Sequence record: MN715356
Strand: one strand, 5' to 3'
From: Escherichia phage vB_EcoP_EcoN5
DNA length: 64,000 bases
In this document: piece after piece, positions 10,929 through 37,221 of the stretch
Position numbering within the stretch: the first letter of the stretch is position 1
Layout of the letters: each line of letters begins with the position of its first letter
Notes under the pieces: generated by a model
Told to the model about the DNA's origin: nothing
The model's database searches: none
Seen by the model: only the letters and a program-made list of their open reading frames with translations
Translations under genes and position numbers: made by a program

Positions 10929-11147
10929 ATGAAAATGATGAAACAAGCTGCATATGGTTTAATCTGTTTAGGTGCAGGTGTTGTGGTGTCAACCGCAGTT
11001 CCTGTAAGCGCAGTTCATCCATTAGTAACTATCCCTGCTCCGGTAGAGAAGCTTAGTTCTCAATGTAAGCAGCGAACCATTCAAAATAATCTAGTTGTTA
11101 TTTGTCCTGATGCTGAATCTAACGCTCTGAGAAAGATACTACCTTAA
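10929..11147 (+). CDS. small protein with N-terminal signal/transmembrane segment (possible holin or secreted accessory protein)
   Basis: 72 aa; hydrophobic N-terminus AAYGLICLGAGVVVSTAVPVSA; directly upstream of lysozyme gene. Confidence 0.4.
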   Translation: MKMMKQAAYGLICLGAGVVVSTAVPVSAVHPLVTIPAPVEKLSSQCKQRTIQNNLVVICPDAESNALRKILP

Positions 11148-11176: not shown

Positions 11177-11668
11177 ATGGATAACGCCGCATTGCCACCT
11201 GTACAATTAAACTTAAGCCCAGCTGGAATGGAATTCATCATGAAGCATGAGGGTATGAGAACCAAGGCTTATAAAGATTCCGCAGGTATCTGGACTATAT
11301 GTGTAGGGGCTACGCGCGATATGAATGGTTATCCGGTTAGACAAGGATTAACGTATTCTATAGAGGATTGTCTAGCTCTGCTAGATAGAGACACACAAGA
11401 CTCTGTTCGTGCTACTCAGAAGAACATAAAGGTTCCTTTACTAGTTCATGAGTTTGATGCACTCACTTCTTTCAACTTCAATGTTGGCAGTGGAGCTTTG
11501 AGCACATCTAAGTTAAGGAAGGTTATCAATGGAGATGTTAAGGGAGATGTTTATTCCGAATTTCTTCGTTGGGATAAAATAACGGTCAAGGGAGAGAAGC
11601 AGAGAAGTCAGGGTCTTCATAATAGAAGAGTTGCAGAAGCTAATCTTTACACCGAAGGTAAATATTAA
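11177..11668 (+). CDS. lysozyme (T4-lysozyme-like glycoside hydrolase family 24)
   Basis: N-terminal catalytic pattern FIMKHEG...AYKDSAGIWTICVGAT matches the E/D/T triad spacing of GH24 lysozymes. Confidence 0.65.
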   Translation: MDNAALPPVQLNLSPAGMEFIMKHEGMRTKAYKDSAGIWTICVGATRDMNGYPVRQGLTYSIEDCLALLDRDTQDSVRATQKNIKVPLLVHEFDALTSFNFNVGSGALSTSKLRKVINGDVKGDVYSEFLRWDKITVKGEKQRSQGLHNRRVAEANLYTEGKY

Positions 11669-17553: not shown

Positions 17554-18336
17554 ATGGCAATTAGAATGGGTATCGAAGAACTAGACCCAATGGTACAGCA
17601 AGCTTCAAAGAAGTATGGTATTCCTGCTGCTTTGATTCATGCTGTAATCCAAAGAGAGTCTAGTGGTCGTCCTACAGTGGCCTCTGGAACTGGTCCTGTA
17701 GGTCTAATGCAGATCAGTAAAGGGTTGGCTAAAGACTATGGATACAAACTAGAAGATAGACTGGACCCAGCAAAGAATATTGACATGGGTGCTCGTTATA
17801 TCAGAGATAACTTAAAAGCTTTTAATGGTGATGTTAAGAAAGCAATGGTTGGTTACTCGGAAGGTATAGGCGGTGCTAAGCAGATGTTCGCTGGTAAAAG
17901 AGGGTTTACCCCTCAAGCCCTTGACTCAATGAATAACAAACACTTTCTCCCTTTCTATGGTGATGCAGCTTCTCAGATTGCTAATCCAATTGGAGCTTTA
18001 CAAGCTGTTCAACCAATAGATCAGTTTAATCCAGAAAACCTAAATAGAGAGAAGGCTGCACAAGCTCCAACTCAGGCAGAGATTGCTGCTTCTAAGACAG
18101 GTGCTTTAGGTGGTAATCCAGTAGAGTTCTACTCTGATGAAGTTCAGGAAGGTGAAGATCAGAAGCCTCAACAGAACTTTGGTAATGCAGTATTAGGAGT
18201 AGCTGCTATGCTTGCTGGTAAACCTCCCACCTCTCAAACAGTTCAGAGGGCAAGTGCACCACATGCAGCAGGTTCTCAGTACAGCCCACAAACACAAGCA
18301 GTGCTCAGACGTTTGGCTAGCATTGGTGTAAAGTAA
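17554..18336 (+). CDS. lytic transglycosylase (SLT domain) virion protein
   Basis: N-terminal motif IQRESSGRP...GLMQISKGLAKDYGY matches the ES...GLMQ...Y active-site signature of SLT-type transglycosylases. Confidence 0.6.
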   Translation: MAIRMGIEELDPMVQQASKKYGIPAALIHAVIQRESSGRPTVASGTGPVGLMQISKGLAKDYGYKLEDRLDPAKNIDMGARYIRDNLKAFNGDVKKAMVGYSEGIGGAKQMFAGKRGFTPQALDSMNNKHFLPFYGDAASQIANPIGALQAVQPIDQFNPENLNREKAAQAPTQAEIAASKTGALGGNPVEFYSDEVQEGEDQKPQQNFGNAVLGVAAMLAGKPPTSQTVQRASAPHAAGSQYSPQTQAVLRRLASIGVK

Positions 18337-29066: not shown

Positions 29067-30552
<1,486 letters not shown>

Positions 30553-30553
<1 letters not shown>

Positions 30554-30813
30554 CACTCTATTCCACGCTCTTTCAGAGCTTCTAACAATCCATTGTGATT
30601 GGCAGCACATTCTGTGTACTGGTCCTGATACCATTCCAACGTAGTGGCTAGTGCTTTTCCTTGAGCACTCTCTAAAAAAGGTAAGTCAACCCTGCATTCA
30701 GCTTTTAGGTTTGTTGGTAAGGGCATTGATTGCCTGCTGCTGTCGATCATTGAACATGCGGATGTACTCATCACTAGCGCAGACATTATAAAAAACTGGT
30801 TTAGTTTTCTCAT
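30553..30813 (-). CDS. small lipoprotein (outer-membrane spanin-like)
   Basis: From internal ATG: signal peptide MRKLNQFFIMSALVMSTSAC with lipobox-like Cys; overlaps end of upstream TM/coiled-coil gene in another frame. Confidence 0.4.
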
Positions 30814-31048
30814 AATGCATCTCTTTATAAACGGTTTCCGTGTTCTTCTTCCAGTTAGATAAACCGGTAAGAACTCTCTGAGCAACCTCATCAGCTGCCT
30901 TGCTTCTTTCAATCTCTAACTCTTGCTGGTGCTTCTCTTTGTCCAGATTACTACTGTCTGTTTGATATTCGTTAAACTTCATACCACCAAAGAATACAAG
31001 AGCTGAGAAAATGATAAACCCTAAGTTATCACTTAACGTGTTTTGCAT
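30698..31048 (-). CDS. type-II membrane coiled-coil protein (inner-membrane spanin-like)
   Basis: From ATG 31048: N-terminal TM segment LGFIIFSALVFFGG then charged helical region; overlapped by lipoprotein gene. Confidence 0.4.
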   Translation of the reverse strand: MQNTLSDNLGFIIFSALVFFGGMKFNEYQTDSSNLDKEKHQQELEIERSKAADEVAQRVLTGLSNWKKNTETVYKEMHYEKTKPVFYNVCASDEYIRMFNDRQQQAINALTNKPKS

Positions 31049-31060
31049 GCTGTCTCCAAC

Positions 31061-31084
31061 GAAAAAAGCCACCCGGAGGTGGCT
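31061..31084 (-). terminator. rho-independent terminator (minus strand) downstream of SSB gene
   Basis: Minus strand reads AGCCACC-TCCG-GGTGGCT followed by TTTTTT. Confidence 0.55.
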
Positions 31085-31105: not shown

Positions 31106-31852
31106 TTAGAATGGGCTATCGTTGTCGTCTTCGTAAGTAGAAGCAGGCTCTTTATCAATCGTAGGGATTGAAGGAGTAGCTTCTTTCTGCTCTGTTTCAG
31201 AAGCACGAGTAATTTCACGACCAGCCAGAGGCATGTTCTTAGCGTCATTAGCTTGAGTAAGCAGGTTGCGCTGGAACGGGAACATCAGTTGATAGGATGC
31301 TACGTTCTCATCGGTTTCAGCATACGGTTCGAAGAATACCAGAGGGCTGCGAGCTTCACCAACTGCTGCACGATATTTGGTTGGGATTGGAGAAATGGTT
31401 TTGATGGAGTTTTTAACTTCACCAGCTTTGTTAGTATAAGAGTTAACCAGAATGTTAACAGGCTGACCTAACAGAACATCCTTGAACCAAGACAGATCAC
31501 CTTTCAGTGCTTGAATGCTTGGGTCAATCATCTTGCAGAGATCAAGAATACCAGAGTTCTTAGCTCGTGGGTTTACATCATAGCTCTTGAACTGGCAAGC
31601 CGGACGTGGTTCTAATGCCTTACCATCGGAATCTTTACCAGTAGCATCAACACCAATCAGCTCGAAAGCCAAATCCATACGGAAAGCCGGGTTCTTAGGA
31701 GTTACTGCTTTGGTCTTCGGGTCAATCCAAGGGTCACGATTGTGAACACCCAAACCTACTACACGAACGATACGTGCTTCGTACTCACCATCAGGGATTA
31801 CATCGTAGTTGGATTTACGGGAAGCAGTTGCGATAGTTGGAATCATAGACAT
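31106..31852 (-). CDS. single-stranded DNA-binding protein (T7 gp2.5-like)
   Basis: 248 aa with acidic C-terminal tail ending YEDDNDSPF; preceded by long promoter-like region, followed by terminator. Confidence 0.5.
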   Translation of the reverse strand: MSMIPTIATASRKSNYDVIPDGEYEARIVRVVGLGVHNRDPWIDPKTKAVTPKNPAFRMDLAFELIGVDATGKDSDGKALEPRPACQFKSYDVNPRAKNSGILDLCKMIDPSIQALKGDLSWFKDVLLGQPVNILVNSYTNKAGEVKNSIKTISPIPTKYRAAVGEARSPLVFFEPYAETDENVASYQLMFPFQRNLLTQANDAKNMPLAGREITRASETEQKEATPSIPTIDKEPASTYEDDNDSPF

Positions 31853-32246
31853 ATTTTAATTTCCTTATTTAATTTGAAAGATTGTTGCTCTCTTTGAGCG
31901 GTTATGTATAGTATACATTACGCTTATACCGATAAGAGTACTATATAATATAAGTATCTTTGGTAGTAGATATAACACACTAGTAATGTATATATTGTAT
32001 AGCTGATAAAGTTATTGCAGGCTTGTATATTGGGCAATTCACAGAATCCCTTGCAAGTACCGAAGGGCAGGAGCCACCTGCGAGATAAAAATAGAGAATT
32101 AAGGAATCCTTGATTTAGGTTGTAGGGACTCCTAGGGACTTTGATTCTCTATTTAAAAGAATATTAATTACTTACTTAAAACCAATTCAAAAAGAGAATA
32201 GCTAAAAGAACTATTCCTAAGAAAGCTAAGAAGTAAATGATATAAG
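31853..32246. promoter_or_regulatory. 394-bp AT-rich non-coding region upstream of SSB gene (likely promoters/regulatory sites)
   Basis: Largest ORF-free stretch in the window; TATAAT-like boxes (e.g. tatataatataag) and short repeats (tagggact x2). Confidence 0.35.
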
Positions 32247-32411
32247 TTACCATTCAAGTAAACCTTTAAAGTTAGTTTGTTCTACTATCCTCTGATAACG
32301 AAGATTAGAATCAGATTGTTTCTTTAACATCTCATTATATTTATCTCTGATAGAGTCTTTATAAACTACAGGTTCTTTAAATAATGAGATCTTGTTCTTT
32401 CCTTCTTTCAT
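32247..32411 (-). CDS. hypothetical small protein
   Basis: ORF 32247..32495 trimmed to internal ATG; still overlaps 3' end of phosphoesterase gene. Confidence 0.3.
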   Translation of the reverse strand: MKEGKNKISLFKEPVVYKDSIRDKYNEMLKKQSDSNLRYQRIVEQTNFKGLLEW

Positions 32412-35005: not shown

Positions 35006-35370
35006 TCAACCTCAATACTATATAGAGTTTTCAGTGTATTTTTAATCCAAGCCCGTCGTTTTGGATTCTTATGATGTGCCCCGTTGTCTCTATCTCTAAA
35101 ATATTGATCACATCCGAAGGGATATGTTGGGTCAAAGAACTCTTCTTGATTAAACATATTCTTCATGTCGTCAATATCTAAATGCTTTGTGAAATAATGA
35201 TATCTCTTATAACAGCGGAAGTTGAAGCATAATCCTTGATCTTCACTAAACCATTTTGGATAAATTCCAGTCTTAGCTATTTCATAATATTGGAGGAGGA
35301 AATCCTCCATCCCCCTCTCTTTAGCTAAACATCTCAATGTTCTGTAGATGATATTGGTTTCTTTCATCAC
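35002..35370 (-). CDS. hypothetical protein
   Basis: 122-aa co-oriented ORF downstream of polymerase gene. Confidence 0.4.
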   Translation of the reverse strand: MMKETNIIYRTLRCLAKERGMEDFLLQYYEIAKTGIYPKWFSEDQGLCFNFRCYKRYHYFTKHLDIDDMKNMFNQEEFFDPTYPFGCDQYFRDRDNGAHHKNPKRRAWIKNTLKTLYSIEVE

Positions 35371-35376
35371 TCACCT

Positions 35377-37221
35377 TTAGTGTGTATGCATCCAGTTAAG
35401 TCCAATCTGACAATCAGATGCCAGAGGACATTCCATGTTCAAATACTCACCAGCCTTCTTAACACAAAGCTCGGTGTGTTCTTTGAGTTTCTGTACATCA
35501 TTACGGTTCACTGAGAACTGGCCCTCATCGTGCATATCAATTACTTTAGCACAACGAACTCCATCTTTCTCAATCCACTTGTTAAGGAACATCATAGCGT
35601 ATTTCATAACAACAGCACCAGCGCATTGCAGGAGTGTGTTAAGGGCTTTATGAACCATAACCTTACCAGTGGCATCTCGTCTCATTGTAATCTTACGACC
35701 ATCAACACCAATCAAGTATCCTTGAGCAGCTTTCTCTGTCATACGATCAATGAGGATTGCAATACATGGGTTCTCTGCCAAGAATCGTGCTCGCATCACT
35801 GAACCTTCGTCAGCCCCACCACCTACAATCGAACCAAGCTTAGCATCACCAGCACCATAGTTGAATGCGTAGATAAACGTCTTAGCATTGTCACGAGTAG
35901 GAAGACCAGCAAGTTTCTGGTTGTGGGAGTGGATATCACCTTCAAGGAGAATATCACGATACATAATAGCAGAAGCTAAACCACGTTCTGCCAGAGCTTT
36001 CTTAGCTGGATTATTCTCTTCTATTGCTTCAGCAAGCATGTCCCTACACTCTTTAATGAGGTAGTGTGCAAGCATACGCAACTCTAACCCAGAACCATCA
36101 TACCCCAAGAATACTTCTTTACCAGCGGGTATGTAATATTTGTAAGCACCTACAGGTTTGTCTTTCTTCCCCGGCTTACCTTTTTCATAAATTACGTTAG
36201 TACCTTTTCGTATATAACAACCATCAGGAACAACGTTAGTAATAACGAAAGGACGAGAGTGATCATCATCTGAGTTATAGTCAGATTCAAACAAACTGCG
36301 ACACTCATGACCAAACAAACCACGGGAGGGAATATTAACCACGATACGATGTTTGAATCGAAAAGTCGGCGTAGCGCAGCTGTTAGCTTCTGCCGAAAGT
36401 TTACCATCTTCGCGCTCCTTTGCTATAAGTCCACTAATAAGACCTAGCCTGTGAGCCGCTACAACGCGTCTCTTAAGCAAACTTCCGACACTCCCTAGCT
36501 CACCCCCTAACCCTTCTTCAAGAGTCTCCTCGAGGTTTGTAGGAGCTGTAGGCCACTTGTTTGATGTAGCTAGTGCTATCTTAATCTCATCAAAAGTGAT
36601 AGGTCTACGTCGGTTAGGGTTTAAACCTAAACCAAATACATAAGCCTTCATGTAGTTCTTAGTTTTAAACCTAAAATGCTTCTCTAAGAACTTCCTAATA
36701 TCAGCGTCAACCATCTCGGCTGTCTGCTTCTGTTTAGCATTACCTCGCATCCAAGCTGAATACCATGCTTGGTATGTTCCATACTTTCGCATATCTTTCT
36801 TGATTTCAAAAGTATTCCAAGGTTTCTTTGATACATTAAACTCTGGAGGAAGAAAGCCCTCATCCATAAGGGCTTCTTTAACTCGTGCATCTTTCGATGG
36901 GTCAAAGTCTACGTATTCAACACAGGTGAATGCTCCACCAATATCTTCCCTCTTAAGGCCAACTCTATCGCAATAGGCTTGAGGCCACTTCTGTAAAGCT
37001 CCAGACTTCTTAAATGGCTTCATATAAGTAGAGCCATCTAATCTCATCTTAGGTAAGAGAGGAATCAGTTCTTTGTCAATATTAACAATAATCTCTTTAA
37101 GGAGGTGAACATACCACCGAGCATTTCTTCGGTTGAAACTCACTCCGTGCTTCGCTTGCTTAGAGATTATATCAGCGACAGTCATCTCTGTCAAAAATGG
37201 GAGAGCGTCCGGGTTGCTCAC
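35377..37221 (-). CDS. DNA polymerase, family A polymerase domain only (T7 gp5-like, no exonuclease domain)
   Basis: Motif A YDGSGLELRMLAHY, motif B RDNAKTFIYAFNYGAG, motif C VIDMHDEGQF; 614 aa, too short to include a proofreading domain. Confidence 0.7.
   Translation of the reverse strand: MSNPDALPFLTEMTVADIISKQAKHGVSFNRRNARWYVHLLKEIIVNIDKELIPLLPKMRLDGSTYMKPFKKSGALQKWPQAYCDRVGLKREDIGGAFTCVEYVDFDPSKDARVKEALMDEGFLPPEFNVSKKPWNTFEIKKDMRKYGTYQAWYSAWMRGNAKQKQTAEMVDADIRKFLEKHFRFKTKNYMKAYVFGLGLNPNRRRPITFDEIKIALATSNKWPTAPTNLEETLEEGLGGELGSVGSLLKRRVVAAHRLGLISGLIAKEREDGKLSAEANSCATPTFRFKHRIVVNIPSRGLFGHECRSLFESDYNSDDDHSRPFVITNVVPDGCYIRKGTNVIYEKGKPGKKDKPVGAYKYYIPAGKEVFLGYDGSGLELRMLAHYLIKECRDMLAEAIEENNPAKKALAERGLASAIMYRDILLEGDIHSHNQKLAGLPTRDNAKTFIYAFNYGAGDAKLGSIVGGGADEGSVMRARFLAENPCIAILIDRMTEKAAQGYLIGVDGRKITMRRDATGKVMVHKALNTLLQCAGAVVMKYAMMFLNKWIEKDGVRCAKVIDMHDEGQFSVNRNDVQKLKEHTELCVKKAGEYLNMECPLASDCQIGLNWMHTH

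Follow-up and report, generated by a model that had tools for sequence, protein, structure and literature searches.

Gene structure of the overlapping pair

We analysed two overlapping genes in the window, by which we mean the whole stretch of 64,000 nucleotides from Escherichia phage vB_EcoP_EcoN5 (sequence record MN715356). The window comes from a phiEco32-like podophage (Kuravirus, Gordonclarkvirinae). The region around the two genes is 95-97% identical to phiEco32-like phages, and its best DNA match is phage Paul (96.9% identity). The first-pass annotation had described a type-II membrane coiled-coil protein whose gene overlaps, in a different frame, that of a small lipoprotein with a lipobox-like Cys. 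Both ORFs are indeed present on the minus strand and share 116 nt (Table 1). The second gene is in the +1 frame of the first; its ATG takes two bases from the end of the Tyr79 codon and one from the beginning of the Glu80 codon. The same ORFs are annotated in the GenBank record of Paul as 'i-spanin' (CPT_Paul_036, with a TMD at residues 8-23) and 'o-spanin' (CPT_Paul_035), and we use these names for the window's genes. The layouts that define two-component spanins are adjacent genes that are embedded, overlapped or separated; the window's genes form an overlapped pair, and the 116-nt overlap is conserved in the relatives examined.

Table 1. Coordinates of the spanin-like pair, its signals and neighbours, and the distant lysis genes in the window
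Feature	Position	Strand	Description	Basis
i-spanin gene	30698..31048	-	116 aa, ATG start	ORF; phrog_1152; Paul annotation; hydropathy
Predicted i-spanin transmembrane segment codons	30980..31024	-	residues 9-23	Kyte-Doolittle; TMpred TMD 8-23 in Paul
Shine-Dalgarno sequence of i-spanin	31053..31057	-	GGAGA, 4 nt 5' of the ATG	sequence; RBS at the same place in Paul
o-spanin gene	30553..30813	-	86 aa, ATG start	ORF; phrog_2425; Paul annotation; PS51257-type rule
o-spanin lipobox codons	30754..30765	-	T17-S18-A19-C20	sequence; PS51257-type rule match
Dual-coding overlap	30698..30813	-	116 nt; i-spanin codons 79-116, o-spanin codons 1-38 and first two bases of codon 39	
Macro-domain (Appr-1-p processing) gene	30113..30553	-		PF01661, E=2.8e-9
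Terminator-like hairpin	31061..31084	-	AGCCACC-TCCG-GGTGGCT, then T5	terminator scan; annotated terminator in Paul
phiEco32 gp36 sigma promoter element	31912..31920	-	TAATGTATA, perfect match	motif search
Putative holin gene	10929..11147	+	72 aa, one hydrophobic segment	phrog_11161 'holin', E=8.3e-50; annotated holin in Bas91
Endolysin gene	11177..11668	+	phage lysozyme family	PF00959, E=3.7e-32; phrog_7, E=3.8e-46
SLT transglycosylase gene	17554..18336	+	second murein hydrolase	PF01464, E=1.4e-23

The 116-aa i-spanin product (MQNTLSDNLGFIIFSALVFFGGMKF...NALTNKPKS) has a single hydrophobic stretch, residues 9-23 (LGFIIFSALVFFGGM), with a Kyte-Doolittle mean of 2.25; this is the maximum of a 15-residue window and starts at residue 9. 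An AF2 model from a 17-sequence alignment places helices at residues 3-81 and 93-111 with low confidence (pLDDT 63.7), and the i-spanin of phiEco32, which is 94% identical to that of the window, has been given 61% helix and, by Pepcoil, 0 coils (Kongari 2018 Tables S2 and S3, respectively, PMC6139136). Of the type-II coiled-coil protein proposed in the first-pass annotation, the one N-terminal hydrophobic segment stands, whereas the coiled coil is unsupported and only helicity can be kept. By these predictions the i-spanin would have the single N-terminal transmembrane segment and the mostly alpha-helical periplasmic domain that characterize the inner-membrane subunit in the two-component spanin definitions of Summer 2007 and Kongari 2018, which we used throughout. 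Its N-terminus carries no positive charge, so that an N-in/C-out topology cannot be read from the sequence; a charge/topology problem has also been flagged for the i-spanin of NJ01 (Kongari 2018, PMC6139136). The protein matches PHROG 1152 'Rz-like spanin' with E=3.4e-37 (residues 3-116 against positions 6-127 of the 127-position profile), and its single conserved Cys, Cys90, does not vary among 17 sequences. Searched against the sequences of the PDB, the i-spanin profile returned only insignificant matches (E>=0.1). The Shine-Dalgarno sequence contains the same GGAG as that listed for the i-spanin of KBNP1711 (Kongari 2018 Table S1, PMC6139136).

The 86-aa o-spanin product (MRKLNQFFIMSALVMSTSAC followed by SMIDSS...KERGIE) consists of a 19-aa lipoprotein signal and a 67-aa mature part that starts at Cys20 and contains the conserved Cys40 and Cys69. 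It satisfies a PROSITE PS51257-type rule, with R2 and K3 in the first seven residues and no charge at residues 10-15, and the 94%-identical Paul protein (CPT_Paul_035) is annotated with a LipoP SpII cleavage at 19/20 (score 18.0). The lipoprotein with a lipobox-like Cys is thus borne out, and the signal-peptide and transmembrane predictions that the first-pass annotation had proposed as a check found the lipoprotein signal in this protein and one transmembrane segment in the 116-aa protein. The lipobox reads S-T-S-A-C; its -3 position is Thr, in contrast to the Met or Leu of most relatives (MSAC, LSAC, MSSC). The +2 residue is Ser and not Asp; there is therefore no inner-membrane retention signal, and outer-membrane sorting is predicted. 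This protein would thereby carry the signal for signal peptidase II (SPII), with a Cys in the lipobox and a residue other than Asp at +2, that defines an outer-membrane subunit. Of the window's 1473 ORFs that are start-defined and measure at least 40 aa, 8 satisfy the rule. Among these eight, the 86-aa ORF is the only one overlapping a spanin-like gene, the other seven being antisense or internal ORFs or having charged N-regions.

The o-spanin matches PHROG 2425, an unlabelled family, with E=7.6e-25 (residues 6-84 against positions 3-82 of the 86-position profile), and there is a weak second match to phrog_4180, which is also unlabelled. Both proteins appear to be full-length members of their families, the i-spanin of PHROG 1152/JH2 and the o-spanin of PHROG 2425 and the NJ01 group. 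Scans of both proteins against Pfam-A (E<=0.01) and NCBIfam (E<=0.1) matched no family, and by these scans neither protein would belong to the lambda Rz/Rz1 or other curated spanin models in Pfam. About 46% of the mature part of the phiEco32-type o-spanin is predicted to be helical (Kongari 2018 Table S2, PMC6139136). Cysteines that may serve for homotypic disulfides in the periplasm are available in both predicted subunits (Cys90 in the i-spanin, Cys40 and Cys69 in the o-spanin). The o-spanin ATG has a weak Shine-Dalgarno sequence, AAGAG, 7 nt upstream of it.

Downstream, the ATG of the macro-domain gene overlaps the TGA of the o-spanin gene (ATGA..., read as GTGATGG), and because of this start/stop overlap the two genes are probably translationally coupled. 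The start of the macro-domain gene precedes a sigma-factor gene, and nucleotide-metabolism genes are also nearby. Upstream, a terminator-like hairpin separates the i-spanin gene from a gene for a 248-aa protein, with which a PDB sequence search found nothing. The nearest phage-type promoter 5' of the pair is the gp36 sigma element, which precedes the 248-aa gene; the consensus of gp36 promoters and their middle/late use are described in PMC8948821, and the SU10 paper locates a promoter between CDS37 and CDS38. Since the nearest gp36-type promoter element lies before the 248-aa gene and the hairpin intervenes, the spanins are probably made at a lower level by read-through of the hairpin. A sigma70-like match inside the pair (30813..30785, minus strand) was rejected as a promoter: its consensus is weak, and there are fewer such matches than in shuffles of the region. 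A tRNA scan of the window found none.

Existing records and selection on the 86-aa frame

The pair and its place far from the holin and endolysin genes are already catalogued, and our finding is a rediscovery. phiEco32 is listed as having an overlapped two-component spanin on the minus strand with a 116-nt overlap (i-spanin 35417..35768, o-spanin 35272..35533; Kongari et al. 2018, PMC6139136), and KBNP1711 has an overlap of the same length, 116 nt (Table S4 of that study). The phiEco32 i-spanin was placed there in the family 'JH2' together with Felix O1-type phages, and the o-spanin family has four members (NJ01, ECBP2, KBNP1711 and PhiEco32). RefSeq phiEco32, SU10, SGF2 and others name the 116-aa ORF 'Rz-like spanin'. 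In most Kuravirus records the o-spanin appears as a 'hypothetical protein' of 57 aa, which begins downstream of the overlap and lacks the signal peptide, and gene callers systematically truncate or miss overlapped o-spanins (Kongari 2018, PMC6139136). Because of this gene-caller bias, a homologous-protein search that started from the o-spanin yielded no more than 6 clusters, most of them 57-aa truncations; we therefore used tblastn and comparison at the DNA level. Spanins go unmentioned in the texts of the papers on Paul, SU7 and YF01, and a 2023 survey of the phage group mentions no lysis genes besides holin and endolysin.

Four independent lines of evidence from sequence comparison indicate that the full 86-aa ORF is under selection. 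Over the 47 non-overlapped codons, the o frame has 7-8 synonymous changes against 1 non-synonymous change in three close relatives (dN/dS ~0.03), while the control frames over the same codons give dN/dS values of 0.45-0.87 or undefined ones. Against intermediate relatives the synonymous sites are saturated and dN is 0.10-0.21, and against the most distant relative, L008, dN is 0.37 and dN/dS is 0.24. Inside the overlap, 0-1.5 of ~12 synonymous sites of the o frame have changed in close and intermediate relatives, against 5.3 in the comparison with L008. Purifying selection acts in both frames. The 67-aa mature o-spanin shows zero indels across nine relatives, down to an IMG/VR contig with 51% i-spanin identity (the search for related loci in IMG/VR gave 6 loci), and Cys20, Cys40 and Cys69 are retained in all nine. 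The ORF is kept at a coverage of at least 80% in 97/97 Kuravirus-like records by tblastn.

Natural variants of the locus carry an HNH homing-endonuclease gene (HEG) across the i/o junction. It was matched in seven phages (E20-1, EK010, KM01, Bas86, Bas87, SU7 and PAS59), and E20-1 and SU7, whose HEG regions are 77% identical, were read in detail. In these two phages the former o-spanin start persists as a truncated relic, and the last dozen or so i-spanin residues differ. The 3' end of the HEG is overlaid by the coding sequence of a new signal with a canonical lipobox, which continues in frame into the mature o-spanin, itself unchanged. The new N-terminus is ..KKKLLSCTGILLAFSLSAC in E20-1 (..AFSLSAC) and MLTKKKQKSCLVIFLASSLMAC in SU7 (..SSLMAC). 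These variants are a natural demonstration of selection on the lipoprotein signal, and a similar event with a GIY-YIG endonuclease distinguishes T5 from Shivani (Kongari et al. 2018, PMC6139136).

Split lysis genes and the function of the pair

The holin candidate lies directly 5' of the endolysin gene, and both are among tail genes of the late plus-strand arm, 18.9 kb from the spanins on the minus strand. The first-pass annotation's split of the lysis functions between two arms, about 19 kb apart, is therefore correct, and the split itself is not new: the T4 genes pseT.3/pseT.2 likewise lie apart from t and e (Kongari et al. 2018, PMC6139136), and in the related phage Privateer the endolysin is ~12 kb from the spanins. 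Linkage to holin and endolysin, a common but non-defining spanin trait, is absent here. The arm with the spanins is of the middle class by expression in phiEco32 and, through homology, also in SU10 (PMC8948821 and the SU10 paper, taken second-hand). The lysozyme had been called the only recognisable endolysin; it is confirmed as an endolysin by PF00959, but the SLT transglycosylase among the structural-arm genes is a second murein hydrolase, which probably serves entry rather than lysis. No N-terminal signal-anchor segment was seen in the endolysin. A second spanin or a u-spanin near the endolysin was considered and rejected, with tail genes on the flanks and no other credible lipoprotein in the window.

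Homologues of the i-spanin were found by tblastn in 436 phage records and those of the o-spanin in 226, the latter all with at least 80% coverage of the full 86-aa query including the signal. They occur in podo-, sipho- and myophages whose hosts are Escherichia, Salmonella, Erwinia, Klebsiella, Proteus and Cronobacter. In the homologue loci inspected the two ORFs overlap, annotated records label them as spanin subunits, and among the matches listed the o-spanin matches adjoin or overlap Rz-like or i-spanin features where these are annotated. The gene order in Salmonella phage Sasha is holin, endolysin, membrane protein, i-spanin and o-spanin, and in Cronobacter phage ESSI-2 the spanin pair directly follows the endolysin. 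The three o-spanin Cys and a C-terminal CAANHNGL motif are conserved across the phage groups, a pattern that would fit a partner-binding surface.

With the gene structure, targeting signals, family membership and synteny described above, we consider it highly likely that the pair is a functional two-component spanin of a phiEco32-like (Kuravirus) coliphage. This reading agrees with PHROG 1152, the Paul annotation, the Kongari 2018 catalogue and all the tests that were run. The topology, lipidation, complex formation and lytic role of the pair would then follow known spanins. The N-terminal segment of the 116-aa i-spanin would hold the protein in the inner membrane, with its mostly helical domain in the periplasm. 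The 86-aa o-spanin would be exported, receive lipid on Cys20, be cut by signal peptidase II and, given Ser and not Asp at +2, end up in the outer membrane's inner leaflet. By analogy with lambda, the subunits may bind through their C-terminal regions, with homotypic disulfides (Cys90 of the i-spanin, Cys40 and Cys69 of the o-spanin) stabilising a complex that would span the periplasm through the murein meshwork. On the lambda model this complex would stay inert until the holin frees the endolysin and the murein is degraded; the complexes might then fuse or disrupt the outer membrane, completing lysis. As such a complex would be harmless until the wall is gone, spanin genes would need no co-regulation with holin and endolysin.

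Several observations count against a spanin: no curated spanin model was matched, no coiled coil is predicted and the i-spanin N-terminus has no positive charge. Thr at the lipobox -3 position and the place of the pair, apart from holin and endolysin and in the middle rather than the late arm, also count against it.

The first-pass annotation had offered superinfection exclusion as an alternative. The 86-aa lipoprotein would then be mainly an exclusion or receptor-masking factor of the T5 Llp or Cor type, made from a middle operon in the latent period, and its overlap with the i-spanin gene would be incidental. Small outer-membrane lipoproteins of virulent phages can do the exclusion job, as in T5; the gene is placed in the middle-gene arm rather than beside holin and endolysin, and PHROG 2425 has no functional label. 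However, the lipoprotein and its Rz-like partner co-occur as an overlapped pair across many phage groups and hosts; such travel as part of a two-gene module would be unexpected for a receptor-specific blocker. The homologues that adjoin the endolysin gene in Sasha and ESSI-2 argue in the same direction, as do the three Cys and the CAANHNGL motif, conserved across groups in a manner fitting a partner-binding surface. No labelled exclusion family was matched in Pfam, PHROGs or NCBIfam, and the ORF appears neither to resemble an exclusion lipoprotein family nor, among the matches listed, to occur independently of the i-spanin. We regard exclusion as the main function as very unlikely; it is disfavoured by two proteins that travel together and lie beside the endolysin in Sasha and ESSI-2. 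It is extremely improbable that the 86-aa ORF is a chance open frame, of which only the 57-aa product or none is made. Most automated annotations imply this, since most records carry only the 57-aa ORF that starts after the overlap, and the weak Shine-Dalgarno sequence (AAGAG) would be in line with it. Yet every relative examined, the 51%-identity one included, retains the upstream ATG together with the signal peptide and the lipobox Cys, and the HEG-split E20-1 and SU7 carry a replacement signal peptide with a lipobox. The whole 86 aa, signal included, is aligned by tblastn in the 226 records, and the truncation or loss of overlapped o-spanins by gene callers is known (Kongari 2018, PMC6139136).

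A real membrane protein/lipoprotein complex could also have another role at the envelope, such as remodelling, DNA entry or the anchoring of replication sites, and be dispensable for disruption of the outer membrane. Middle-class expression beside sigma-factor, macro-domain and nucleotide-metabolism genes would suit such a role, as would the predicted lack of a coiled coil; in the literature searched we found no experimental test of this spanin family, including a lysis phenotype. Against this, every structural hallmark that defines two-component spanins is present and the window contains no other spanin candidate. Phages of Gram-negatives that have a canonical holin and endolysin normally require a spanin as well (Kongari 2018, PMC6139136). 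Distant homologues also adjoin endolysin genes, in Sasha inside a holin-endolysin cassette. We consider such a role in place of lysis unlikely. A different matter is whether the o-spanin or the preassembled complex has a second role in the latent period, such as exclusion or envelope conditioning, besides lysis; transcription with the middle genes behind the hairpin and the macro-domain start that overlaps the o-spanin stop prompt the idea, which we judge quite improbable.

If the pair is a spanin, its importance goes little beyond correct annotation, as it is already in the spanin catalogue and in several GenBank records. Those who engineer these therapeutic-candidate phages should note that a third lysis function would sit in the replication arm.

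Comparison with known spanin systems

The closest counterparts are the pairs of phiEco32, NJ01, KBNP1711, ECBP2 and Paul, which are the same genes: the i-spanin proteins are 94-97% identical and the o-spanins ~94% identical to those of the window, with equal lengths (116 and 86 aa), the same 116-nt overlap, the same strand and the same neighbours. The window differs from the phiEco32/Paul-type pairs by point substitutions only, for example TSAC in the window against MSAC in most relatives. More distant are Sasha (gp55/gp56) and ESSI-2 (gp16/gp15), which have true homologues of both subunits in the same overlapped layout. The Sasha i-spanin is 33% identical (E=3e-19) and its o-spanin 33% identical (E=4e-14) to those of the window, with every Cys in register. 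In both phages the pair is beside the endolysin, preceded by the holin in Sasha, whereas the pair of the window is detached from it and lies in the middle-gene arm.

The first-pass annotation had likened the layout to that of overlapped Rz/Rz1 spanins. An overlapped spanin layout is what we found, but the comparison with lambda does not hold, since lambda Rz/Rz1 is embedded and P2 LysB/LysC is the classical overlapped example (classes after Kongari 2018, PMC6139136). As in the window, the o-spanin of P2 starts inside the i-spanin, in the +1 frame, and runs past its stop, and the two products are a type II membrane protein and an outer-membrane lipoprotein. The P2 and window pairs have no detectable sequence relationship and are in different families in the Kongari tables, and the P2 pair is within the lysis cassette whereas that of the window is 19 kb away on the other strand. 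The lambda pair resembles that of the window in the proposed mechanism, in which a periplasm-spanning, disulfide-linked complex would act after murein degradation. It differs in that Rz1 lies wholly inside Rz and is proline-rich and unstructured, while the window's o-spanin is of the overlapped type, with a prediction of ~46% helix for its mature part; there is no Pfam-level similarity to Rz/Rz1, and no coiled coil is predicted for the window pair.

T4 PseT.3/PseT.2 shares with the window pair a location of the spanin genes away from the holin (t) and endolysin (e) genes, and we take it to belong to another sequence family. The sizes are 117 and 83 aa in T4 against 116 and 86 aa in the window, and a C-terminal helix is predicted in the T4 o-spanin, as in that of the window (Kongari 2018 Fig. 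8 legend, PMC6139136). The T4 genes are separated, whereas those of the window overlap.

The o-spanin/macro-domain junction and the upstream gene

At GTGATGG (30551..30556, minus strand), the stop codon of the o-spanin gene overlaps the start codon of the macro-domain gene directly downstream. Because these codons overlap, the sequence suggests that the two genes are coupled in translation, which would tie a gene for lysis to one for ADP-ribose processing. In the Suseptimavirus relatives (loci L009 and L010), a 74-aa ORF stands in place of the macro-domain gene.

A gene for a 248-aa protein precedes the spanin genes and is conserved in that position, also in L008, a distant relative. Pfam and PDB searches with this protein returned no match, and it matches phrog_6599, a PHROG of unknown function. 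A weak, sub-threshold similarity to an NCBIfam phage replication-initiation family was also found (E=2e-5; it scores 24 bits, where the cut-off is 75). The acidic C-terminal tail of the protein (..YEDDNDSPF) recalls SSB-type tails. Upstream of the gene lies a non-coding gap with two perfect motifs for the phiEco32 gp36 sigma factor, and the plus-strand copy is directed against the surrounding genes. The tRNA scan of the window found no tRNA in this gap.

Features in the window and at related loci
Feature	Location	Strand	Remarks
248-aa protein gene	31106..31852	-	
Non-coding gap	31853..32376		~520 bp, middle-gene arm
gp36-promoter motif TAATGTATA	31912..31920	-	perfect; in gap
gp36-promoter motif TAATGTATA	31984..31992	+	perfect; in gap
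Inverted repeat	32089..32102 / 32141..32154		14 nt, 93% complementary; in gap
Annotated 'holin'	10929..11147	+	PHROG label
SLT-domain lytic transglycosylase	17554..18336	+	PF01464, E=1.4e-23
HNH homing-endonuclease locus, E20-1	L011 1492..2529		OP293233
HNH homing-endonuclease locus, SU7	L014 301..1338		MZ342906
HNH endonuclease gene, SU10	L013 1708..2121		NC_027395

Other lysis-related and murein-acting genes

The SLT-domain transglycosylase gene, situated among the structural-arm genes, encodes a second murein hydrolase in the window that is missing from the first-pass annotation; the enzyme is probably virion-associated and serves entry. The putative holin, so identified solely by its PHROG label, has a single hydrophobic segment, close to its N-terminus; its C-terminal portion is long and polar and contains two Cys.

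Endonuclease genes at the spanin locus of relatives

In seven related phages, the spanin overlap is interrupted by an HNH homing-endonuclease gene. In E20-1 and SU7, the two that were read, the o-spanin receives a substitute lipoprotein signal, read in another frame from the 3' end of this gene, and the i-spanin gains a new C-terminus. The insertion thus turns the overlapped spanin layout into a separated one. In SU10, an HNH endonuclease gene distinct from this one separates the 248-aa gene from the i-spanin gene; because this insertion is at another position, the spanin locus has been struck by homing endonucleases at at least two distinct sites. The comparison of T5 with Shivani provides a precedent for the change of layout described for E20-1 and SU7 (Kongari 2018, PMC6139136).
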